DNA of 64,000 bases from Escherichia coli (GCF_044324875.1 NZ_CP172185.1), one strand, 5' to 3'; numbered from the stretch's first letter, positions 1 through 39,841 are shown. Program-made: numbers and translations. Notes: a model not told the origin generated them from the sequence alone.

Positions 1-645
1 AGCAGGTGCTTTGTGGCGCCGGAGCCCCCGAACTGAACACCACCATCCTTGATTCAGAATGGGCCATGCCTGTTGCTCTGGGCCCCGTCGGTGCCACTGG
101 CATGTACGCCCGTCGTGGAGAGGTGCAGGCAGCCAGAGCGGCCTCAGCAATGAACATCCCTTATACTCTCTCAACCGTCTCCGTCTGCCCGATCGAAGAG
201 GTCGCCGGACACGCTGACGGGCAACTGTGGTCCCAGTTATACGTCCTTCGGGATCGTGGTTATATGCAAAACGCACTTGAACGCGCCTGGACTGCAGGTA
301 TGAAAACCCTGGTATTTACCGTCGACATGCCTGTGCCGGGCTCCCGGTACAGGGATAACCATTCAGGGATGTCAGGTCCCCACGCCACACTGCGTCAGTA
401 TCTTCAGGCCGTTCTTCATCCCCGCTGGGCGCTGGATGTGGGAATTGCCGGTCGTCCTCTGTCATTTGGTAACATCGAAACGTACACCGGGCATAAAATG
501 TCGATGGATGACTATATGGGCTTTATCAGCAAAAACTTTGATCCCTCTATTGCATGGAACGATCTCGAATGGATCCGTGATGGCTGGAAAGGTAAACTGA
601 TAATAAAAGGGATCCTTGTTCCGGAAGATGCAAAAAATGCTGTAC
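1..645 (+). pseudogene. FMN-dependent L-lactate dehydrogenase (LldD family), 5' part; gene starts upstream of the window and is interrupted by IS629
   Basis: ORF 6..806 translation has the alpha-hydroxy-acid dehydrogenase pattern ([48 protein letters not shown]); after ..EDAKNAV (pos 645) the frame reads into the IS629 terminal repeat. Confidence 0.8.
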
Positions 646-687
646 TGAACCGCCCCGGGTTTCCTGGAGAGTGTTTTATCTGTGAAC

Positions 688-1578
688 TCAGGCTGCCAGA
701 TCATCGTTTCCGATGGAAGCATAATAAGATTTTTCTGCTTCTGCCGGTGGGATATGGCCCAGCCTTTCCAGCAATCGTCGATTGTTATACCAGTCCACCC
801 ACGTGAGTGTGGCCAGCTCCACTTCTGTCCGGTTTTTCCAGCTCTTACGGTGTATTACCTCCGCTTTGTAAAGGCCATTGATGCTCTCCGCCATCGCGTT
901 GTCATACGAGTCACCAGTACTTCCTGTTGATGCCAGTAATCCGGCTTCCTTAAGCCGCTGTGTGTAGGCCAGCGATACATACTGAGAACCTTTATCACTG
1001 TGATGGACTGTGCCGGACGGTCGACGGGCCCATAACGCCTGCTCCAGAGCATCCAGCACGAATGTCGTTTCCATAGACGATGAGACCCGCCACCCCACGA
1101 TGTATCCGGCAAACACATCAATGATGAACGCCACATAGACGACCCCCTCCCATGTGCTGACGTAAGTAAAATCAGCCACCCACAACTGGTCAGGACGTTC
1201 TGCCACAAACTGACGGTTTACGCGGTCGCCTGCGGCAACGGCTTTCCGGCTGACGGTAGTGCGGACCTTTTTACCCCGGAGAACACCGGCAAGTCCCATA
1301 ACCGCCATGAGGCGCGCCACTGTACATCTGGCTACCCTGATTCCTTCCCGTAACAACTGACGCCAGACTTTACGCACACCGTATACCTGATGATTCCCAT
1401 CGTATACGCGCAGTATCTCTTTCTTCAGCCAGTCATCGCGCTGCGCACGGGCACTGCGTTTATAAGGATGATGTCGCTGTTGCTGACAGTGGTAATACGT
1501 TGACGGGGCAATATGTAGTTCACTGCATACCGGTCCGACCCCGTACAGCTTACGCAGCTTATCCAGCAGTGGCATCAC
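688..1578 (-). CDS. IS629 transposase OrfB (DDE integrase domain)
   Basis: 296-aa ORF with IS3-family integrase core ([18 protein letters not shown]); 3 aa different from copies 2-4. Confidence 0.85.
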
Positions 1579-1901
1579 TTTTTCCAGAGGCGGTCGAACT
1601 CCGCCTTCGCAAAATAAGCGGAAGCCTGGCGAAGGATATCGTTACTGCGGCGCAGTTCACGATTTTCACGTTCCAGCTCTTTCAGACGCTGACGTTCAGC
1701 GGTGGTGAGCCCGCCATCACCGCCTCCGGTATCCCGCTCATGCTGGCGTACCCAGACACGCAGAGTCTCCGGTGTACAGCCAATCTTTGGGGCAATGGAA
1801 CAAATTGCCGCCCACTGTGAGTCATATTCGCCCTGACTTTCCAGAACCATACGAATCGCCCTCTGACGGACTTCGGGGGAAAAACGAGTATTTTTAGTCA
1901 T
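1575..1901 (-). CDS. IS629 transposase OrfA (helix-turn-helix / leucine-zipper part)
   Basis: 108-aa [22 protein letters not shown]..., overlaps orfB start as in IS3-family frameshift arrangement. Confidence 0.85.
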
Positions 1902-1955
1902 TCTGTTTACCTCTTTCTCAGGGAGTTTAGTCTCCAGGATTCCCGGGGCGGTTCA

Positions 1956-2336
1956 GTACGGCTTGGCGCGGATGGCATCATTGTCTCCAATCATGGCGGA
2001 CGTCAGCTTGATGGTGCCATCCCCACGGCCAGGGCATTACCGGCGATAGCAGATGCAGTGGGTGATGACATCACGGTACTGGCGGATTCAGGTATTCGTT
2101 CCGGTGTGGATGTGGTCCGGATGCTTGCTCTGGGGGCAAAAGGTGTGCTGCTGGGAAGAGCGTATATTTACGCACTTGCCGCTGCGGGAAAAAAAGGCGT
2201 TGAGCACCTGCTCAGACTTTATGCTGAAGATATGAAAGTCACCATGACGCTGATCGGCGCTTCTTCTCCCGCTGATATCAGCAGCAGAAATCTTGAATAT
2301 CTGGAAAAAGAATTCTCCCGACATTCATCATCCTGA
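1956..2336 (+). pseudogene. L-lactate dehydrogenase 3' part (resumes in frame after IS629)
   Basis: Translation from 1956 gives [20 protein letters not shown]...[19 protein letters not shown], the conserved C-terminal half of LldD-type enzymes; joins ..KNAV at 645 when IS and one GTAC copy are removed. Confidence 0.8.
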
Positions 2337-2412: not shown

Positions 2413-2703
2413 TTACCAGTATGGTCTGCATTCAGAAGGGACCGACAACAACTCAGCCAGCTCCGCCACAAGGCGGTTGGTTTCCAGTAATTTCCGCAGA
2501 CTCACCGAAAAATAGCCTTGTGCCACATCGTGATTTTCACAGGCTTCCCTGCGCGTCAGCCCCAGAACAAAATAATCCCTCAGCGCCAGGATAACCTTTT
2601 TACTGTTAACGGGAGAAAGCGCTGCAAGTATTTCAAAATGTGCATCTGACATGCTTCCGGGCGTGTCATATATCCCGGCAACACGACTGTGATATATCCC
2701 CAC
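2413..2703 (-). CDS. PapB/FaeA-family small transcriptional regulator (fimbrial-operon regulator type)
   Basis: 96-aa ORF with GSMSDAHFEILAALSPVNSKKVILALRDY...REACENHDVAQGYFSVSLRKL, recalled PapB-family signature; long AT-rich region upstream (2704-3500). Confidence 0.55.
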   Translation of the reverse strand: MGIYHSRVAGIYDTPGSMSDAHFEILAALSPVNSKKVILALRDYFVLGLTRREACENHDVAQGYFSVSLRKLLETNRLVAELAELLSVPSECRPYW

Positions 2704-3268
2704 GGATACCCCCTGATTACCGCCTGCCCTTATTCCCCGGGAGACTGAGAACAGGCTGAGATATAAGTATATTTATATAATATTATATTTCGGATTATTC
2801 GCAGAATACTGAAAAAACCGGTCGGGTCAACCGCAGGAAAACAGAAAGAGCCTGTAATAACGCATAGAAACGATATTTAAAACCAGAACAACCATCAAAA
2901 ACAGAACATAAAGTCACAAAAACCGTCAAAAACGACCAGGTACTGCATTTTTAACACCTTTTTTAAATTTTGGTATCTTTACAAAAAACACCACCTGAAA
3001 ATCATTTATTTAATTAAATAAAGTAAATTGCTTAGCCTGATAAATATTGTTCTGCAACACTCCGGTTCAGGCAGAATGTATTTTCATGGCTTACCCATTC
3101 AGGCGTAAATGCGATATTCCGCACATGACAGAGACCACACAAAGAAAAACAGGCGCAGACAGCCGGATACAGGATAAATTAACACTTCACAATCCGGCAT
3201 TATTACGCTACAACATTCACGGGCAACTGCCCTTGTAACGAAAACTTCCTTAATTTGGGTATTTGTGT

Positions 3269-3298
3269 GCCGTACGTCTGTGGTGTACGGCTTTTTTT
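3269..3298 (+). terminator. Putative intrinsic terminator (GC stem GCCGTAC/GTACGGC followed by T7)
   Basis: gccgtac gtctgtggt gtacggc ttttttt read directly; the transcript it would end is not identified. Confidence 0.4.
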
Positions 3299-3584
3299 CA
3301 TTTTTTTATAATTTCTATAAATAAAGATATAATCAATACGTATATACCGTCGTATAAGATCCTTCTTCACCTTTCATTAAAAAGATCCGGAACAAAACAG
3401 ACGATGAGATTGTGGTACTACCAGATTTACACCCTTACTCCGGATAATTCACAAATCCTGAAATTACGACCTTCCTCCCGTTGCCGGACTGAAACAATAT
3501 GCAGACACTCTGACGGACATGTCAGCAATGCACTCGCTCTCTGCTGTACAGGTATTACACCATACTTCACCAGGAGGTCTGTTC

Positions 3585-10290: not shown

Positions 10291-10332
10291 TGAACCGCCC
10301 CGGGTTTCCTGGAGAGTGTTTTATCTGTGAAC

Positions 10333-11223
10333 TCAGGCTGCCAGATCATCGTTTCCGATGGAAGCATAATAAGCTTTTTCTGCTTCTGCCGGTGGGATAT
10401 GGCCCAGCCTTTCCAGCAATCGTCGATTGTTATACCAGTCCACCCACGTGAGTGTGGCCAGCTCCACTTCTGTCCGGTTTTTCCAGCTCTTACGGTGTAT
10501 TACCTCCGCTTTGTAAAGGCCATTGATGCTCTCCGCCATCGCGTTGTCATACGAGTCACCAGTACTTCCTGTTGATGCCAGTAATCCGGCTTCCTTAAGC
10601 CGCTGTGTGTAGGCCAGCGATACATACTGAGAACCTTTATCACTGTGATGGACTGTGCCGGACGGTCGACGGGCCCATAACGCCTGCTCCAGAGCATCCA
10701 GCACGAATGTCGTTTCCATAGACGATGAGACCCGCCACCCCACGATGTATCCGGCAAACACATCAATGATGAACGCCACATAGACGACCCCCTGCCATGT
10801 GCTGACGTAAGTAAAATCAGCCACCCACAACTGGTCAGGACGTTCTGCCACAAACTGACGGTTTACGCGGTCGCCTGCGGCAACGGCTTTCCGGCTGACG
10901 GTAGTGCGGACCTTTTTACCCCGGAGAACACCGGCAAGTCCCATAACCGCCATGAGGCGCGCCACTGTACATCTGGCTACCCTGATTCCTTCCCGTAACA
11001 ACTGACGCCAGACTTTACGCACACCGTATACCTGATGATTCCCATCGTATACGCGCAGTATCTCTTTCTTCAGCCAGTCATCGCGCTGCGCACGGGCACT
11101 GCGTTTATCCGGATGATGTCGCTGTTGCTGACAGTGGTAATACGTTGACGGGGCAATATGTAGTTCACTGCATACCGGTCCGACCCCGTACAGCTTACGC
11201 AGCTTATCCAGCAGTGGCATCAC
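10333..11223 (-). CDS. IS629 transposase OrfB
   Basis: 296-aa ORF identical to copies 3 and 4. Confidence 0.85.
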
Positions 11224-11546
11224 TTTTTCCAGAGGCGGTCGAACTCCGCCTTCGCAAAATAAGCGGAAGCCTGGCGAAGGATATCGTTACTGCGGCGCAG
11301 TTCACGATTTTCACGTTCCAGCTCTTTCAGACGCTGACGTTCAGCGGTGGTGAGCCCGCCATCACCGCCTCCGGTATCCCGCTCATGCTGGCGTACCCAG
11401 ACACGCAGAGTCTCCGGTGTACAGCCAATCTTTGGGGCAATGGAACAAATTGCCGCCCACTGTGAGTCATATTCGCCCTGACTTTCCAGAACCATACGAA
11501 TCGCCCTCTGACGGACTTCGGGGGAAAAACGAGTATTTTTAGTCAT
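11220..11546 (-). CDS. IS629 transposase OrfA
   Basis: 108-aa ORF identical to other copies. Confidence 0.85.
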
Positions 11547-11600
11547 TCTGTTTACCTCTTTCTCAGGGAGTTTAGTCTCCAGGATTCCCGGGGCGGTTCA

Positions 11601-17582: not shown

Positions 17583-17646
17583 ATTCGCTTCCTATTGCTC
17601 AACCTGAACCGCCCCGGGTTTCCTGGAGAGTGTTTTATCTGTGAAC

Positions 17647-18537
17647 TCAGGCTGCCAGATCATCGTTTCCGATGGAAGCATAATAAGCTTTTTCTGCTTC
17701 TGCCGGTGGGATATGGCCCAGCCTTTCCAGCAATCGTCGATTGTTATACCAGTCCACCCACGTGAGTGTGGCCAGCTCCACTTCTGTCCGGTTTTTCCAG
17801 CTCTTACGGTGTATTACCTCCGCTTTGTAAAGGCCATTGATGCTCTCCGCCATCGCGTTGTCATACGAGTCACCAGTACTTCCTGTTGATGCCAGTAATC
17901 CGGCTTCCTTAAGCCGCTGTGTGTAGGCCAGCGATACATACTGAGAACCTTTATCACTGTGATGGACTGTGCCGGACGGTCGACGGGCCCATAACGCCTG
18001 CTCCAGAGCATCCAGCACGAATGTCGTTTCCATAGACGATGAGACCCGCCACCCCACGATGTATCCGGCAAACACATCAATGATGAACGCCACATAGACG
18101 ACCCCCTGCCATGTGCTGACGTAAGTAAAATCAGCCACCCACAACTGGTCAGGACGTTCTGCCACAAACTGACGGTTTACGCGGTCGCCTGCGGCAACGG
18201 CTTTCCGGCTGACGGTAGTGCGGACCTTTTTACCCCGGAGAACACCGGCAAGTCCCATAACCGCCATGAGGCGCGCCACTGTACATCTGGCTACCCTGAT
18301 TCCTTCCCGTAACAACTGACGCCAGACTTTACGCACACCGTATACCTGATGATTCCCATCGTATACGCGCAGTATCTCTTTCTTCAGCCAGTCATCGCGC
18401 TGCGCACGGGCACTGCGTTTATCCGGATGATGTCGCTGTTGCTGACAGTGGTAATACGTTGACGGGGCAATATGTAGTTCACTGCATACCGGTCCGACCC
18501 CGTACAGCTTACGCAGCTTATCCAGCAGTGGCATCAC
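17647..18537 (-). CDS. IS629 transposase OrfB
   Basis: 296-aa ORF identical to copies 2 and 4. Confidence 0.85.
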
Positions 18538-18860
18538 TTTTTCCAGAGGCGGTCGAACTCCGCCTTCGCAAAATAAGCGGAAGCCTGGCGAAGGATATCG
18601 TTACTGCGGCGCAGTTCACGATTTTCACGTTCCAGCTCTTTCAGACGCTGACGTTCAGCGGTGGTGAGCCCGCCATCACCGCCTCCGGTATCCCGCTCAT
18701 GCTGGCGTACCCAGACACGCAGAGTCTCCGGTGTACAGCCAATCTTTGGGGCAATGGAACAAATTGCCGCCCACTGTGAGTCATATTCGCCCTGACTTTC
18801 CAGAACCATACGAATCGCCCTCTGACGGACTTCGGGGGAAAAACGAGTATTTTTAGTCAT
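18534..18860 (-). CDS. IS629 transposase OrfA
   Basis: 108-aa ORF. Confidence 0.85.
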
Positions 18861-18914
18861 TCTGTTTACCTCTTTCTCAGGGAGTTTAGTCTCCAGGATT
18901 CCCGGGGCGGTTCA

Positions 18915-19526
18915 TTGGGAAGTTGTGCCTCTAAAAAGGTTGGCGGTCTTGAGCCCTTCTGTGAAAGTTTCAAATAGAAAGTCCAAAGAATTAGTTACTT
19001 TCTTAGCGATAGAAAAGGTTTCAACAGATGGATTTATTGATCAAGATACATTAATGCCTATATGTGATGTGAGCCAAGGTTTTACGGTTTTTAACCGGGG
19101 GGATGTGATTGTTGCAAAAATTACACCTTGCTTTGAAAATGGGAAATCTGCTTGGCTTAACAATCTTCAAACTGAGTTTGGTTACGGCTCAACCGAGTTT
19201 CACGTTTTAAGATGTGGTCAGAGAATTATAGGAAGTTTTCTCTACTTAATCGTTAGTTCGCCCCTTTTTCTTAATGCCGGTGAGGCTATGATGACTGGTT
19301 CAGCTGGTCAGAAGCGCGTGCCTAGTTCATTTATCCAAAACTTTCCTACCGCAATTCCCGGAGTTGCAGAGCAAGAAAAAATAGTATCAAAGGTAAAAGA
19401 GCTGTTTTCACAGATTGATGTTGTTGTGGCTTCTACGGTAAATCAAATCGAAAAGCTCAAAGAATACAAAACCACCCTGATCAACAGCGCCGTGACAGGA
19501 AAAATAAAAATCACCCCAGAAATGGT
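18915..19526 (+). pseudogene. hsdS: hsdS 3' half (second target-recognition domain and distal conserved region), inverted relative to the rest of the operon
   Basis: ORF 18925..19575 (GTG start artefact) ...QEKIVSKVKELFSQIDVVVASTVNQIEKLKEYKTTLINSAVTGKI... typical HsdS C-terminal repeat; reads on + while hsdM, hsdS 5' half and hsdR read on -. Confidence 0.75.
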
Positions 19527-19580
19527 TGAACCGCCCCGGGAATCCTGGAGACTAAACTCCCTGAGAAAGAGGTAAACAGA

Positions 19581-19907
19581 ATGACTAAAAATACTCGTTT
19601 TTCCCCCGAAGTCCGTCAGAGGGCGATTCGTATGGTTCTGGAAAGTCAGGGCGAATATGACTCACAGTGGGCGGCAATTTGTTCCATTGCCCCAAAGATT
19701 GGCTGTACACCGGAGACTCTGCGTGTCTGGGTACGCCAGCATGAGCGGGATACCGGAGGCGGTGATGGCGGGCTCACCACCGCTGAACGTCAGCGTCTGA
19801 AAGAGCTGGAACGTGAAAATCGTGAACTGCGCCGCAGTAACGATATCCTTCGCCAGGCTTCCGCTTATTTTGCGAAGGCGGAGTTCGACCGCCTCTGGAA
19901 AAAGTGA
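19581..19907 (+). CDS. IS629 transposase OrfA
   Basis: 108-aa ORF identical to other copies. Confidence 0.85.
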
Positions 19908-20794
19908 TGCCACTGCTGGATAAGCTGCGTAAGCTGTACGGGGTCGGACCGGTATGCAGTGAACTACATATTGCCCCGTCAACGTATTACCACTGTCAGC
20001 AACAGCGACATCATCCGGATAAACGCAGTGCCCGTGCGCAGCGCGATGACTGGCTGAAGAAAGAGATACTGCGCGTATACGATGGGAATCATCAGGTATA
20101 CGGTGTGCGTAAAGTCTGGCGTCAGTTGTTACGGGAAGGAATCAGGGTAGCCAGATGTACAGTGGCGCGCCTCATGGCGGTTATGGGACTTGCCGGTGTT
20201 CTCCGGGGTAAAAAGGTCCGCACTACCGTCAGCCGGAAAGCCGTTGCCGCAGGCGACCGCGTAAACCGTCAGTTTGTGGCAGAACGTCCTGACCAGTTGT
20301 GGGTGGCTGATTTTACTTACGTCAGCACATGGCAGGGGGTCGTCTATGTGGCGTTCATCATTGATGTGTTTGCCGGATACATCGTGGGGTGGCGGGTCTC
20401 ATCGTCTATGGAAACGACATTCGTGCTGGATGCTCTGGAGCAGGCGTTATGGGCCCGTCGACCGTCCGGCACAGTCCATCACAGTGATAAAGGTTCTCAG
20501 TATGTATCGCTGGCCTACACACAGCGGCTTAAGGAAGCCGGATTACTGGCATCAACAGGAAGTACTGGTGACTCGTATGACAACGCGATGGCGGAGAGCA
20601 TCAATGGCCTTTACAAAGCGGAGGTAATACACCGTAAGAGCTGGAAAAACCGGACAGAAGTGGAGCTGGCCACACTCACGTGGGTGGACTGGTATAACAA
20701 TCGACGATTGCTGGAAAGGCTGGGCCATATCCCACCGGCAGAAGCAGAAAAAGCTTATTATGCTTCCATCGGAAACGATGATCTGGCAGCCTGA
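19904..20794 (+). CDS. IS629 transposase OrfB
   Basis: 296-aa ORF identical to copies 2 and 3. Confidence 0.85.
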
Positions 20795-20836
20795 GTTCAC
20801 AGATAAAACACTCTCCAGGAAACCCGGGGCGGTTCA

Positions 20837-33851: not shown

Positions 33852-35282
33852 TCAGGCCAGCGTCCACAGTGAGCCGTCCGTCAGCACAGCCTCGCCGTGA
33901 GCTGCATATAGCGACAACCGGCGGGTTCCGGGCTGCGGGTAAATACGGCTGGACAGGGTGGCATCGCCATCGTTAACGAACACTTCCACCGATGAACGGT
34001 CCAGGAAAACCCGTAGCGTCAGATATTCTGCGCCAGGCAGCGCGATACTGCGGTAACCGTCCAGCCCCTCATCCGGGTAGTGACGCCAAAGCACCAGCCG
34101 TCCTGCCTGGTTATCCACATACAGCCGGAGCCCGTCTCCCAGGTGGATGCCGTAATGCTCTGCCTGACTGTCGAGGGTATGCCACGTCAGCACCAGTTCC
34201 ACGGCCTGTGCGTCCTCAGCCAGCAACTGCGTGCCACTGAGCCTTACAGGGTGTAACGGCTGGCACGTCCCGCGAAGGGATTCGGCTTCGCGAACCGGAC
34301 GCTGACACAGACGACCATGGCGTTCAAAAAGTTCCCTCGGCAGGGTCAGACATCCGGCCCAGGCCTCACGCTTTGTAGGCATCGGGGAGTCCCACATATT
34401 CATCCAGGCCATGATGATGCGCCGTCCGTCCTCCGCGACCAGGGACTGCGGGGCATAAAAATCATGACCGTGATCCAGTTCTTCAAATGCCCCGCTCAGG
34501 GCAAAAGCGGCCCCCGGCTGCCAGTGACCCGGTAAAACTCCGCTCTGAAAGCGGTTGCGGAACCGGTATCCGCCGGGCGTCATCCCCTGCGGGGAGAACA
34601 TCAGCCAGTGATGGTCGCCACAGCGGAAAAAGTCCGGACATTCCCACATATAGCTTTCTCCGGCTGCCGACTGCGCCAGAACCCGTTCCTGGCGCCAGTC
34701 CCGCAGGGATGTGCCGCGATACAGCAGCACCTGACCGGTGTCAGAGGTATCCCGCGCGCCGATAACCATCCACCAGTATCCCCCTTCCCGCCAGACCTTC
34801 GGGTCACGGAAATGCATGATGCCTTCCGGTGGCGTCAGCACGCAGCCCTGTTTCTCAAAGTGAATGCCGTCACGGCTGGTTGCCAGACACTGGACTTCGC
34901 GGATGATGCTGTCATCCCCCCGATCCTCCAGACAGAGATGACCGGTGTAGATAAGCGACAGCACGCCGTTGTCGTCCACTGCGCTGCCGGAAAAACAGCC
35001 ATCCCGGTCATATTCATCACCGGGTGCCAGCGCAACCGGCTCATGCTGCCAGTGCAGCATGTCCGGACTGGTGGCATGTCCCCAGTGCATCGGCCCCTGA
35101 TGTTCACTTGCCGGATGGTGCTGAAAGAATGCGTGATAGCGACCGCTGAAATAAATAAGCCCGTTCGGATCATTCATCCATCCGGCAGGTGGAGCCAGAT
35201 GAAAAACCGGGTACCAGGTATCACCACGACGGGCGCGGAGTGTATCAAGTGCAACCTGTGCAGAGGCAAGACGCTGTTTCAT
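33852..35282 (-). CDS. rafD: Glycoside hydrolase family 32 sucrose(-6-phosphate) hydrolase / invertase
   Basis: 476-aa ORF with GH32 motifs (WMNDPNG, FSGSA, RDP, EC). Confidence 0.75.
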   Translation of the reverse strand: MKQRLASAQVALDTLRARRGDTWYPVFHLAPPAGWMNDPNGLIYFSGRYHAFFQHHPASEHQGPMHWGHATSPDMLHWQHEPVALAPGDEYDRDGCFSGSAVDDNGVLSLIYTGHLCLEDRGDDSIIREVQCLATSRDGIHFEKQGCVLTPPEGIMHFRDPKVWREGGYWWMVIGARDTSDTGQVLLYRGTSLRDWRQERVLAQSAAGESYMWECPDFFRCGDHHWLMFSPQGMTPGGYRFRNRFQSGVLPGHWQPGAAFALSGAFEELDHGHDFYAPQSLVAEDGRRIIMAWMNMWDSPMPTKREAWAGCLTLPRELFERHGRLCQRPVREAESLRGTCQPLHPVRLSGTQLLAEDAQAVELVLTWHTLDSQAEHYGIHLGDGLRLYVDNQAGRLVLWRHYPDEGLDGYRSIALPGAEYLTLRVFLDRSSVEVFVNDGDATLSSRIYPQPGTRRLSLYAAHGEAVLTDGSLWTLA

Positions 35283-36571
35283 AAGCGAACCTCCGTCTGT
35301 GCTGTAGCGGTTTCTGCTGACGGGGCAGCCGTTTTACGGGTACTGCTCAGGGTGAAAGCCGATAACACGGTGACCGCAAGGACAATACCGCCCAGAACCA
35401 GATAGGTGTTCTGGAACCCCATGCGGTCATACAGGTGACCTGCAAAGGTTGAGAGGAATATCGCCGCCAGTTGTTTGGAGAACTGAAAGCCAATCAGATA
35501 AATGGTGGCCGACAGCCGGGTATCAAACACGCCGGTGATATACTTGAACGCACCAACCAGCAGGAATGGGACTTCAAGGGCATGCAGCATTTTCAGGATC
35601 ACCACTTCAGTAGCCGTGGTGGCAAAGGCCGACCCTGTGATGCGGATGGTCATAATCAGACCCGCGACAAGCAGTGTGTTTTTGGCACCAATGCGGTTGA
35701 TTATCCAGGGGGAGCAGAACATGATGATGGCATTGCAAATCTCGCCAGCCGTGGTGGCAAAACCAAATGCCCGGATCCCCGCCTGCGGCGTGTCAAAAAA
35801 TGCACGGAAGAACGTGGCAAACTGCTGGTCAAACACGTCATAGACGCAGGCCACCCCAATCATGTAAAGCACGAACATCCACATCTGACGCATACGAAAC
35901 AGACTGAACACCATTCCGGCGGAAATCACGGGCGAGTTGGCACCCAGCGCATTCATGACCATCGCTGTCTGACTGGTTCCGGGACGCGCCAGCGCCACCA
36001 GAAGGACCAGCAGCAATGCGCAGCCGGACCCCATCCAGAATACCAGGGACGGATCCACGTTGAAAAGCAGCCCTGCCGTGGTGGCACACAGCGCCCAGCC
36101 CAGACAGCCGAACATCCGGGCCTTACCGTATTCAAATCCGCTGCTGCGGCTGACACGTTCAATATAGGCTTCGATGGCACCGGCTCCCGCAGAAAAAACG
36201 AAGCCGATAAAAATCCCGCCGCTCAGTGCTCCGGCCCAGATGTTGAACCGCAGCAGCGGCGCAAAAACGTACAGAAAGAACGGTGCAAACAGGACCAGCA
36301 GCAGGCTGATGATCCACATCAGGTGTTTTTTCAGGCCAAGACGGTCTGAGATGACCCCCAGCAGCGGCTGGAAGCTGATGGCAAACAGGGAGAGGCATGA
36401 AAAAACAATCCCGGTATCCGTTTTACTCAGCCCCACAATGTCTGACAGCCAGACGGGCAGAAACGGGAAACAGGTTGCCATGATGAAAAAGTAGAGAAAA
36501 AAGAACAGACCAAATATCCAGAAATCGGGGTTTTTATGAGTACTGACAGTATTCATTATTGTTATCCTCAC
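35279..36571 (-). CDS. rafB: LacY-family oligosaccharide:H+ symporter (raffinose permease)
   Basis: 430-aa ORF colinear with LacY-type permeases (FWIFGLFFFLYFFIM, GKARMFGCLGWALC). Confidence 0.75.
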   Translation of the reverse strand: MRITIMNTVSTHKNPDFWIFGLFFFLYFFIMATCFPFLPVWLSDIVGLSKTDTGIVFSCLSLFAISFQPLLGVISDRLGLKKHLMWIISLLLVLFAPFFLYVFAPLLRFNIWAGALSGGIFIGFVFSAGAGAIEAYIERVSRSSGFEYGKARMFGCLGWALCATTAGLLFNVDPSLVFWMGSGCALLLVLLVALARPGTSQTAMVMNALGANSPVISAGMVFSLFRMRQMWMFVLYMIGVACVYDVFDQQFATFFRAFFDTPQAGIRAFGFATTAGEICNAIIMFCSPWIINRIGAKNTLLVAGLIMTIRITGSAFATTATEVVILKMLHALEVPFLLVGAFKYITGVFDTRLSATIYLIGFQFSKQLAAIFLSTFAGHLYDRMGFQNTYLVLGGIVLAVTVLSAFTLSSTRKTAAPSAETATAQTEVRL

Positions 36572-36610
36572 GGGACTGAGTGCAGGGAGCCGTGACCGGC
36601 TCCGGTCCTT

Positions 36611-38737
36611 TTATGCCAAACGTTCAAGGGCAATCAGCATGGCGCTTTCCGGATCCAGTACGGGAAGCTGAATACCGGCCTGCGCCAGCCATTCCCCACT
36701 GATGTCGGAGGTCTGGTTCATCCAGCCGGGCAGCCTGCGCATGGTATGCCCGCCTTCACCGACCAGCTGAATATCCGGATGGTCAACAACACGAAGCCGG
36801 TAACGGGCCTGTGGTGCCAGCCCCGGAAAACGTAGAGCACCCGGCAGGGTGTGATCCGGCATGGCAAGCTGGCTCACCAGGAAGAGCGCCTGCGACTGAT
36901 CCGGGCTGACCACCCCCTGCACCTGTGTCGCCGCATCCGGCATATCCACCCGCCATAGGGTGCCCGTGTGGATAAGCTGCCGCCATTCTTTGTAGAGCGA
37001 GGCATAGCGGCGGTAACCGGCGGATTCCTCTTCTCCGGCCGTTACCGGATCCAGCTCCAGTCCCATATGACCGAACAGGGCCGTCAGACCGCGAAAGGCA
37101 ATGCTGTGCTGCCGGAAGGTGGCATGGCAGCGATGATGACCGATGTGTGCCCCCATAACCTCCGGCGGGAAAAAGTAACTCATGCCACGCTGTATGGTGC
37201 AGCGCTCCAGGGCGTCATTGTTGTCAGAAGCCCAGAAGCGGTGCGTGCGGGTCAGAACCTCAAAGTCGATACGTCCACCGCCGGAAGCGCAGGACTCAAA
37301 CTCAACACGGGGAAAACGTTCGCGCAGGAGATCCAGCAGCCGGTAAAACTGACGGGTCTGCGCGTCCGCCGCCGCCCGACCTTCATGCCCGGCCTGGACC
37401 AGCTCGCGGTTCATGTCCCATTTCACATAGTCAACTGGGTGTTCGCCCAGCAGCCATAAACAGCGTTCATAAATGTAAGCAAAGGCCTCAGGAATGTTCA
37501 GGTTGAGAACATACTGATGTCTCCCGGTTGGTTGTGTGTACCCCGGCATTGACAGTACCCAGTCAGGATGGCGGCGAAAGAGGTCAGAGTCCGGGTTAAT
37601 CATTTCCGGTTCCACCCAGATACCGAACTCCATGCCGAGTGATTTCACATGGTTAATCACCGGCATCAGTCCGTCCGGATACTTCTGTTCATCCAGATAC
37701 CAGTCGCCCAGAGCCGCATGGTCATCATTGCGCCCCTTAAACCAGCCGTCGTCGATAATGAAACGTTCAACGCCAAGCGCTGCCGCACGTCCGGCCATCT
37801 GCATGATGTAGTTCGGGTCGTGGTCAAAATAAATACCTTCCCAGGTATTGAGGTGCACCGGACGGGGTTTCTGCTCAGGAAAACGGATGATTTCATCGCG
37901 CAGAAAACGGTGGTACTGCTGACTCATACCATTGAGCCCCTCCGGGGAATAGCTGGCGTACAGCCACGGCGTGTACACGGTCTCATCCTTCTTCAGGGCT
38001 TTTTCTCCGGGCATCCACAGTGCTTCCGCCTGGAGGTAACGCCGTCCGTCAGTTTTGACCTCACATTTCATGCGATGGTTGCCACTCCAGCCCAGATGTA
38101 CGGCCCACACCTCGCCCTGCTGTTCTGAGAAACCGGGGGCACCGGCAATCAGTGCCGGAAAATGCTCATGGGACGTGCGGCCCCGGCGGTTCTCCAGCAC
38201 AAAACCGTCATGTGTGAGACGGACCCTGTGCGGCTGAAACTCACGAGTCCAGCGTCCGTGGAAGGCCATGACTTCCTCTGCCCTTTCAGCCACAGGGAGC
38301 GTGATGGCGAAGCGGTTCACCTGCCAGTCCCCTTCACGGAGGTTCGTCAGGGCATGACGCATCTTCAGCACACCGGACGATGTCAGCACCAGTTCACTGA
38401 CCATGCGCAGACCCGCCACTGCATCCTCACTGGTCAGGGTGAGTGATTCTCCGGCCTGTACCACGCTGATGGTACGGAACACAGGGGACGCATCCAGCCC
38501 GTTGCGGTGTCCCTCCAGCCCCGGCGAGCCAAAAAGTCCCGCGCCGTTTTCGGCCATCAGCGTCAGTGGGGTGTCGGTATCCAGACGACCATTCGCAACC
38601 GGCCTTTCCAGGCTGATACAGTCATCCGGTGAAAAGTGTTTCAGGGTGGATCCCCACCAGACAATCTCTGCATACGGGTGGGTTTTAATAATCAGGTCTG
38701 AGTGGGGACTGGTCAGCCTGCGGTACATCGGTTCCAT
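36611..38737 (-). CDS. rafA: Alpha-galactosidase (GH36)
   Basis: 708-aa ORF; GH36 core (ERFIIDDGWF, KWDMNR, SCASGGGR). Confidence 0.8.
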   Translation of the reverse strand: MEPMYRRLTSPHSDLIIKTHPYAEIVWWGSTLKHFSPDDCISLERPVANGRLDTDTPLTLMAENGAGLFGSPGLEGHRNGLDASPVFRTISVVQAGESLTLTSEDAVAGLRMVSELVLTSSGVLKMRHALTNLREGDWQVNRFAITLPVAERAEEVMAFHGRWTREFQPHRVRLTHDGFVLENRRGRTSHEHFPALIAGAPGFSEQQGEVWAVHLGWSGNHRMKCEVKTDGRRYLQAEALWMPGEKALKKDETVYTPWLYASYSPEGLNGMSQQYHRFLRDEIIRFPEQKPRPVHLNTWEGIYFDHDPNYIMQMAGRAAALGVERFIIDDGWFKGRNDDHAALGDWYLDEQKYPDGLMPVINHVKSLGMEFGIWVEPEMINPDSDLFRRHPDWVLSMPGYTQPTGRHQYVLNLNIPEAFAYIYERCLWLLGEHPVDYVKWDMNRELVQAGHEGRAAADAQTRQFYRLLDLLRERFPRVEFESCASGGGRIDFEVLTRTHRFWASDNNDALERCTIQRGMSYFFPPEVMGAHIGHHRCHATFRQHSIAFRGLTALFGHMGLELDPVTAGEEESAGYRRYASLYKEWRQLIHTGTLWRVDMPDAATQVQGVVSPDQSQALFLVSQLAMPDHTLPGALRFPGLAPQARYRLRVVDHPDIQLVGEGGHTMRRLPGWMNQTSDISGEWLAQAGIQLPVLDPESAMLIALERLA

Positions 38738-38830
38738 AAGACATCTCCGTTTTCGGGTATGCCTTACTGTTGATCCGAATCGTTTCGGATAGCAACCGAA
38801 ACGATTCGGATTTGTGAGCGGGATTAAAAA

Positions 38831-39841
38831 TCAGGCGGAGGGAGCAAGCGTTGTCTTGCCAGGATGAAATTCCGGCTGCCAGAGTACTTGTAGCATTTCA
38901 GGTGAAACATTCGTGACCAGCTGGCGTATCATGTCGGCAATCTGACGACCGACGCGATGTCGTGTTGACTGAAGAACTGCAGCCACATCCTGTTCAATAA
39001 TACTGTCCTGCGGCAGACCATCATAAACCACAAGAGAGACGGCATCCTCTCCGGACAGATGACCGGATAACTGCAGCGACATGGCCGCGCCATCACCGAT
39101 CAGGTCACTGTCGGTAATAATGGCCGTCGGGGGAAGCGGAAGTGACATTAACTCAGTCACTGCCTGGAAACCTGAGCGTCGGGTGGGAGAGACCCGGCGT
39201 AGCCAGGTCTCAGGCAGACCATGTTCACTCAGGGCATCGCGCCATCCCTGACGTCGTGCAGTGACATAGGCACGGGAGTTGTCCTCACTCAGCAGGGCAA
39301 TTCGCTGATGGCCCAGGGCAATCAGGTGCTGTGTGGCCTGCCAGGTTCCTGCATGGTTATCAAAGTCAAACCAGGCACAGGGAAGACCGGACGGCACCTG
39401 ACCGAGTGCCAGAAACGGAATACCGGCCTCCTGCAGGTGTGTAAGACGCGGGTCATTATCCATCGTGTGCGCCACGATAAGGGCATCAACCCGGCGGCTT
39501 TCGACCAGACGCATATAGCTGTGGCTGTCAGCCCGTTCATCATCGGCTATCAGCAGTAAGTCAATATCATGGCGGGCCAGTTCCCGGCTGATACAACTGA
39601 CCATATCCACAAACACACTACTGCTGAACAGTACAGCATGTTCAGGGAAGACCAGGCCGACCGCATCGGTTTTACCGGTTTTGAGACGTCTTGCCAGGGT
39701 ATTCGGGCGATAACCACGACGCCGAGCTTCCGCTTCTACACGTGCACGGGTCGAAGCGGAAACGTCCGAAAATCCGCCAAGCGCCCGGCTGACTGTGGTG
39801 ACAGAGATCCCGAGTTCGGCGGCGATAGCCTTGAGTGACAT
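38831..39841 (-). CDS. rafR: LacI-family transcriptional repressor (raffinose operon repressor type)
   Basis: 336-aa ORF with N-terminal helix-turn-helix (LKAIAAELGISVTTVSRALGG) and periplasmic-binding-fold domain. Confidence 0.7.
   Translation of the reverse strand: MSLKAIAAELGISVTTVSRALGGFSDVSASTRARVEAEARRRGYRPNTLARRLKTGKTDAVGLVFPEHAVLFSSSVFVDMVSCISRELARHDIDLLLIADDERADSHSYMRLVESRRVDALIVAHTMDNDPRLTHLQEAGIPFLALGQVPSGLPCAWFDFDNHAGTWQATQHLIALGHQRIALLSEDNSRAYVTARRQGWRDALSEHGLPETWLRRVSPTRRSGFQAVTELMSLPLPPTAIITDSDLIGDGAAMSLQLSGHLSGEDAVSLVVYDGLPQDSIIEQDVAAVLQSTRHRVGRQIADMIRQLVTNVSPEMLQVLWQPEFHPGKTTLAPSA

Follow-up and report, generated by a model that had tools for sequence, protein, structure and literature searches.

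An IS629-type element in an island-borne lldD paralogue of Escherichia coli

The stretch of Escherichia coli DNA analysed here (64,000 nucleotides of NZ_CP172185.1, one strand; hereafter the window) opens with two pieces of an lldD-like gene on either side of an insertion sequence, and genes for a PapB-type regulator and an LldP-like permease lie beyond them. How was the dehydrogenase gene broken, what was lost with it, and do its neighbours make up a lactate module in which that loss would matter? We consider it highly probable (roughly 0.9) that transposition of an active IS629-type element into an accessory lldD paralogue, carried on an island, duplicated the sequence GTAC and made the enzyme null. 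The features on which the argument draws are collected in Table 1.

Table 1. Coordinates of the interrupted dehydrogenase gene, its neighbours and the related insertion sequences, counted from the first nucleotide of the window.
Feature	Position	Strand	Basis or remark
lldD paralogue, 5' part (gene nt 146-790)	1-645	+	0 mismatches to intact gene
Target-site duplication GTAC, left copy	642-645		single GTAC in intact allele
IS629-type insertion sequence (IS3 family), complete, 1310 bp	646-1955	-	junctions and full-length similarity
IS orfB, 296 aa, DDE/rve integrase-like domain	688-1578	-	intact ORF; rve Pfam domains on equivalent copies
ALIL frameshift-stimulating pseudoknot	1504-1620	-	Rfam RF01497, 116.2 bits vs gathering score 50, E=1.9e-30
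IS orfA, 108 aa, HTH	1575-1901	-	intact ORF
Target-site duplication GTAC, right copy	1956-1959		single GTAC in intact allele
lldD paralogue, 3' part (R264 to stop), with SNHGGRQLD motif	1960-2336	+	0 mismatches to intact gene
PapB/FocB-family small regulator gene, 96 aa from GTG or 79 aa from ATG	2413-2703	-	Pfam PF03333, 95.4 bits, E=2e-27; PGAP name
AT-rich non-coding spacer, 880 bp, 34-40% GC	2704-3584		
Terminator-like hairpin, strong, 10-bp stem, T7 tail	3269-3291	+	no gene upstream to terminate
Best promoter-like site for permease	3305-3333	+	predicted
TGGTACTACCA palindrome, perfect TGGTnnnACCA, GntR/FadR-type operator core	3413-3423		about 80 bp downstream of best promoter-like site
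LctP-family L-lactate permease paralogue, intact, 547 aa	3585-5228	+	86% to K-12 LldP; NCBIfam NF007740
MFS metabolite/H+ symporter-like transporter, 430 aa	5404-6696	+	always accompanies permease in island
Third full IS copy, without target duplication	10291-11600		same site in strains GF4, TUM1886
Two IS629-type full copies splitting hsdS (type I restriction-modification), identical, inverted orientation	17605-18914 and 19527-20836		absent from GF4 island
Partial IS copy, 795 bp (IS positions 516-1310)	26959-27753		site common to GF4
Tyrosine integrase, island end	51289-52497		adjoins DUF2726, phoH, efeUOB, putPA

The left junction reads ...GCTGTAC/TGAACCGCCCCGGG..., the element starting with TGAACCGCCCCGGG, and the right junction reads ...CCCGGGGCGGTTCA/GTACGGCTT..., the element ending with CCCGGGGCGGTTCA; the GTAC at the insertion point occurs once in the intact allele, exactly at this site, which rules out coincidence. 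As the reference for that allele we used the gene of E. coli strain AR_0085 (L001:11856-13022; 1167 nt, 388 aa, WP_000587292.1, named LldD in RefSeq). Joining window positions 1-645 to 1960-2336 gives 1022 nt with 0 mismatches to nt 146-1167 of this gene, and its translation coincides exactly with the C-terminal part of the 388-aa protein; the window itself begins at nt 146, and the preceding 145 nt (first 48 codons) lie outside it. The initial annotation had described a lactate dehydrogenase gene split by IS629 with a 4-bp GTAC duplication, and had held that deleting the element and one GTAC would restore the gene. Both statements hold: a restored gene out of frame would have refuted the annotation, and the restored gene is in frame.

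The insertion point lies between V263 and R264, 5' of the catalytic SNHGGRQLD motif. Upstream of it the lldD frame runs into the element and meets a stop at 806 (ORF 6-806), and the predicted product, 263 native residues followed by a 53-residue IS-derived tail (316 aa), would lack both the catalytic His and Arg of SNHGGRQLD and the last FMN-binding barrel strands. The downstream piece lacks a promoter and a start codon of its own, the first candidate start being a GTG at 2058. The motif and the full-length barrel are therefore not in one reading frame, since the element separates the motif from residues 1-263. Split in this way from its catalytic motif, the gene is a pseudogene in its present state, and the allele is predicted to be null, in keeping with the earlier claim that the dehydrogenase is now knocked out.

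What kind of enzyme was lost can be judged from the restored protein. It carries a full FMN_dh domain (PF01070, 421 bits), scores above both NCBIfam cut-offs for LldD (NF033901, 596 vs 550 bits; NF008398, 612 vs 376) and aligns with K-12 LldD at 63% identity over 383 residues with one 1-residue gap and conserved catalytic motifs; its 5' part in the window is 66% identical to K-12 LldD residues 59-263 by tblastn. An enzyme clearly diverged from E. coli LldD had been proposed, and the 63% amino-acid identity bears this out. We would predict L-lactate as the substrate of the island paralogue.

The permease beyond it matches PF02652 over its full length (755 bits) and exceeds the LldP equivalog cut-off (NF007740, 1089 vs 918), scoring below that of the GlcA model (757 vs 1121). 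Its relatives outside E. coli reach no more than about 87%, and it stands at roughly equal distance from the LldP of several genera. The description of the permease as close to LldP (86% amino-acid identity), with a PapB-type regulator in the place of lldR, thus agrees with what we find: the intervening minus-strand gene matches PF03333 with 95 bits, and tblastn detects no LldR homologue in the window.

The block containing the lldD paralogue is present in 11 of 5426 complete E. coli genomes, and canonical lldRD in 5420 of the same 5426, so that carriers of the island almost certainly hold two sets. On that frequency across E. coli, the island copy would probably be a second one, redundant with lldPRD, in the genome from which the window comes as well. 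The neighbours are constant in the E. coli carriers (a gene for an aromatic-amino-acid-type transporter, then lldD paralogue, papB-like gene, permease and MFS transporter), and about 1786 assembly blocks are indexed as containing the exact permease sequence; in all 8 of the places shown the arrangement was the same. The surrounding island is large and IS-rich, with raf genes and a type I restriction system among its contents; it is bounded by an integrase, and no tRNA gene was found in the window. Of the initial proposal of a second, horizontally acquired lactate module, the acquisition is supported by the presence of the block in few genomes and by its place in an integrase-bounded island next to phoH; its genes, as set out below, are not an operon.

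Some further observations concern the island as a whole. Its raffinose/sucrose utilisation cluster occupies 30139-39841 of the window and comprises a porin, a kinase, a GH32 hydrolase, an MFS permease, an alpha-galactosidase and a regulator. In the corresponding island of strain GF4 (L023:20191-20666), PGAP places a fragment of astA (EAST1 heat-stable enterotoxin) overlapping a transposase ORF upstream of the porin gene, a position that by synteny corresponds to about 29400-29900 of the window. The core genes of the window are only 98.6-98.9% identical to those of the best complete E. coli genomes.

Outside this island the dehydrogenase belongs to an LldD-like clade whose members are 80-88% identical to one another and 63-64% identical to K-12 LldD, the closest named relatives beyond E. 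coli being those of Klebsiella (81%) and Enterobacter hormaechei (82%). The Klebsiella member encodes 394 aa and is a solitary chromosomal gene with sufABCDSE adjacent, widespread across assemblies of the K. pneumoniae complex; it sits between sufA and an RND efflux operon and bears the RefSeq name LldD (L006-L008, 8001-9185). Members in Enterobacter and in other E. coli stand alone among IS elements and integrases. For an 88%-identical homologue (L012:1654-9041), the immediate upstream neighbours are an Afa/Dr-type chaperone-usher cluster (PapD, PapC, AfaD) and an Hha-like gene. These contexts have nothing in common except the dehydrogenase gene itself, and a search for synteny with the block outside E. 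coli recovered this gene alone. Our literature search returned nothing relevant on this island or its dehydrogenase paralogue, nor experimental data for the clade.

The PapB-like gene is convergent with lldD and divergent from the permease gene, and its closest DNA relative is the Afa/Dr-family operon regulator gene daaA. The PGAP annotation of the equivalent regions in carrier genomes contains no chaperone, usher or pilin genes, which leaves the PapB-like gene an orphan. That it is a relic is likelier than that it replaces lldR, and the daaA-like sequence together with the Afa/Dr neighbour of the 88% homologue hints that this orphan regulator is what remains of such a fimbrial operon.

In the spacer upstream of the permease an Rfam scan returned terminator-like fragments only. 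The palindrome found there agrees with the published LldR box (PMC10272880) at 9 of 14 positions, and the TGGTnnnACCA pattern occurs twice in the window against 1.1 expected, which is no enrichment. The region upstream of the permease has no similarity to that of K-12 lldP. A conserved LldR operator upstream of the island permease was considered and rejected: the K-12 lldP promoter does not align, the box matches in part and the pattern shows no enrichment. The palindrome, which resembles GntR-type operators, is retained as no more than a lead.

The lldD paralogue and the permease gene are separated by 1.25 kb and so do not form one operon. The "module" is a juxtaposition peculiar to the E. 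coli island, and the block looks like a mosaic that became fixed within one such island. A further step would be to regard the genes as brought together by chance during mosaic assembly of the island and as no functional lactate module at all, the knockout then hitting a stand-alone dehydrogenase only. On this account, which we hold to be possible although unlikely, a mobile LldD-like gene that stands alone elsewhere, a PapB-like orphan left over from an Afa/Dr-type fimbrial operon and a separately acquired pair of permease and MFS genes came to lie side by side. The solitary state of the closest dehydrogenase relatives outside E. coli (80-88%) speaks for it, as does the fact that this gene alone is common to the different contexts. 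The unequal resemblance to the core proteins (63% to LldD vs 86% to LldP) suggests different histories, the gap between dehydrogenase and permease holds an antisense gene and a terminator-like hairpin, and both the kinship of the papB-like gene with daaA and the PapD/PapC/AfaD cluster beside one 88% homologue fit the same picture. Catabolic loci, however, usually pair a dehydrogenase with a permease for the same substrate. The island dehydrogenase and permease both exceed lactate-specific NCBIfam cut-offs, and the gene order is constant in all E. coli carriers read (about 1786 blocks indexed).

Alternatively, the paralogue might oxidise another 2-hydroxy acid, for instance glycolate, mandelate or an aromatic lactate, in which case a different catabolic step was lost. 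The protein forms a clade of its own at 63% to LldD, its best solved relative is (S)-mandelate dehydrogenase, and in every carrier an aromatic-amino-acid-type transporter gene lies directly upstream. We nevertheless regard another substrate as improbable. The top rank of mandelate dehydrogenase may simply reflect the absence of an LldD structure among the PDB hits, and the near full-length alignment with K-12 LldD and the scores above the curated LldD cut-offs both point back to L-lactate.

One might also combine these ideas and speculate that the clade of 388-394-aa LldD-like proteins is a distinct mobile 2-hydroxy-acid dehydrogenase, wired in the island copy to a captured permease. Its substrate or its conditions of use might then differ from those of LldD, and the permease might answer in trans to a host GntR-type regulator through the palindrome at 3413-3423, or to the orphan PapB-like protein. 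We give this proposal little credence; were it true, the recurrent lesions described below would mark the function as dispensable in some niches.

We return to the preferred explanation, transposition into an accessory lldD paralogue, and to the element responsible. Its terminal inverted repeats are imperfect (25 bp, 23 of 25 end positions complementary). Its transposase genes overlap at 1575-1578 and run antisense to lldD, and PGAP annotates equivalent copies as "IS3 family transposase, programmed frameshift", a -1 frameshift joining orfA and orfB. The element shares 99.8% identity with copies that are frequent on E. coli plasmids and 95.4-95.8%, over its full length, with copies annotated as IS629 in O157-type Stx phages and phage BP-4795. 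In ISfinder practice, isoforms share at least about 95% nucleotide identity with the reference element, a threshold against which the values for the phage copies are borderline. Rump et al. found IS629 sub-types 4-5% apart, all carrying that one name (PMC3271280), which makes the IS629 label acceptable for our element at the sub-type level; judged by these identities, it is an IS629 sub-type other than the O157-type. The duplication also fits, IS629 target duplications being 3-4 bp (PMC3271280).

The insertion had been called simple and recent, and several observations agree. The 4-bp duplication is perfect, the flanks are free of mismatches and the ORFs of the element are intact. A search of the 5426 complete E. 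coli genomes found no junction between lldD and the element, nor did one of the GTDB species representatives, in which the intact target site has no match either; the predicted 316-aa product has no exact-sequence record. All 11 complete E. coli genomes that carry the block lack the element in their lldD paralogue, a gene nearly invariant among carriers (0-1 differences per 1167 nt). From such comparisons we judge that the lldD insertion is recent and lineage-specific.

The window contains four more copies of the element, three full and one partial, within 28 kb of the same island. The three full ones are mutually identical, and the lldD copy departs from them at 4 positions, so its donor is not in the window but elsewhere in the genome. 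The third full copy occupies a site common to GF4 and TUM1886 and is therefore older, and the two copies in hsdS, new relative to GF4, indicate that the element has been active in this lineage. Between these two copies (17605-20836) a 612-bp piece of hsdS has the opposite orientation to that in strain GF4. When the flanks are exchanged, 3-bp target duplications (ACC and CAA) reappear, which points to two hsdS insertions followed by an IS-mediated inversion. One of the hsdS junctions is common to about five draft assemblies.

Other lesions occur in the same dehydrogenase gene. Strain 135 (L015:3579-4752) has a 7-bp tandem duplication, GAAAATA, at nt 116, and two SRA-derived assemblies (L029, L030) have 1-bp deletions, at nt 676 (within an A5 run) and nt 828. 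The genes may truly be pseudogenes there, or the changes may be errors of sequencing. About four lesions among roughly 1800 carrier records are compatible with weak constraint on the gene and are no demonstration of it.

Such independent lesions (the duplication in strain 135 and the deletions in two SRA assemblies) might suggest that the insertion was selected or regulatory, for example that outward transcription from the element runs antisense into the PapB-like gene, or that loss of the enzyme was advantageous. We think this very improbable: about 1800 carrier records contain few such lesions, some of them are possibly sequencing errors, and the same element struck hsdS twice nearby, which resembles untargeted IS expansion. 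It is harder still to credit that the split is an assembly artefact in which a repeated element was misplaced, for although five near-identical IS copies in one window are the type of repeat that confuses assemblers, a complete element with both ends and an exact 4-bp duplication of a single-copy GTAC is the signature of transposition and not of a misjoin, and the lldD copy has 4 private differences from the others.

The sequence of events we favour would thus begin with entry of the IS629-type element into the accessory lldD paralogue, presumably by the copy-out-paste-in route known from the IS3 family. Insertion would have duplicated GTAC and parted codon 263 from codon 264 of the 388-codon gene, leaving an upstream piece that lacks the catalytic residues and a downstream piece that lacks a start codon, and hence a null enzyme. 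The neighbouring genes for the PapB-like protein, the permease and the MFS transporter are untouched. A polar effect on them seems unlikely: the PapB-like gene faces lldD in convergent orientation, and the permease, at a distance of 1.25 kb, is preceded by a predicted AT-rich promoter region of its own. Since core lldPRD is present in nearly all E. coli, loss of the island copy was probably of low cost.

None of the databases searched contains the allele, but knockout by an insertion sequence is thoroughly known as a type of event. We therefore see the insertion as a lineage-specific marker with little significance beyond strain typing. Like the double hit on hsdS, it counts among several indications that the IS629-type element recently expanded in the island and is eroding accessory genes there. 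It also draws attention to the RefSeq name LldD, which in E. coli covers two clearly different proteins, the core enzyme and the 63%-identical island paralogue.

Compared with K-12 lldPRD, the island likewise holds an LctP-family permease (86%) and a homologue of the FMN-dependent membrane-type dehydrogenase (63%) at one locus. The K-12 genes, however, lie in the order P-R-D in one unit and include the GntR-family regulator LldR, whereas the island order is D, antisense papB-like gene, P, with a PapB-family gene in the position of the missing LldR and a permease upstream region unrelated to the K-12 lldP promoter region. The former locus is core (5420/5426) and the latter accessory (11/5426). 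The Klebsiella 394-aa "LldD" shares the clade of the island enzyme and its 63-64% identity to K-12 LldD, but it is chromosomal and solitary, without an adjacent permease, whereas the E. coli copy is island-borne beside one. Pseudomonas aeruginosa offers an analogy only: it has redundant FMN-dependent L-lactate dehydrogenases, LldD and LldA (PMC10983889), and with two such enzymes lactate use may survive the loss of one.

The element itself has close counterparts in the IS629/IS1203/IS3411 group of E. coli and Shigella, with which it shares the 1310-bp length, the TGAACCGCCCCGGG ends, the -1 frameshift between orfA and orfB and the ALIL pseudoknot. The 3-4-bp target duplication and the inactivation of a gene by simple insertion are likewise features of this group (PMC3271280). 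From the IS629 of O157 Stx phages it stands apart, at only 95.4-95.8% identity.
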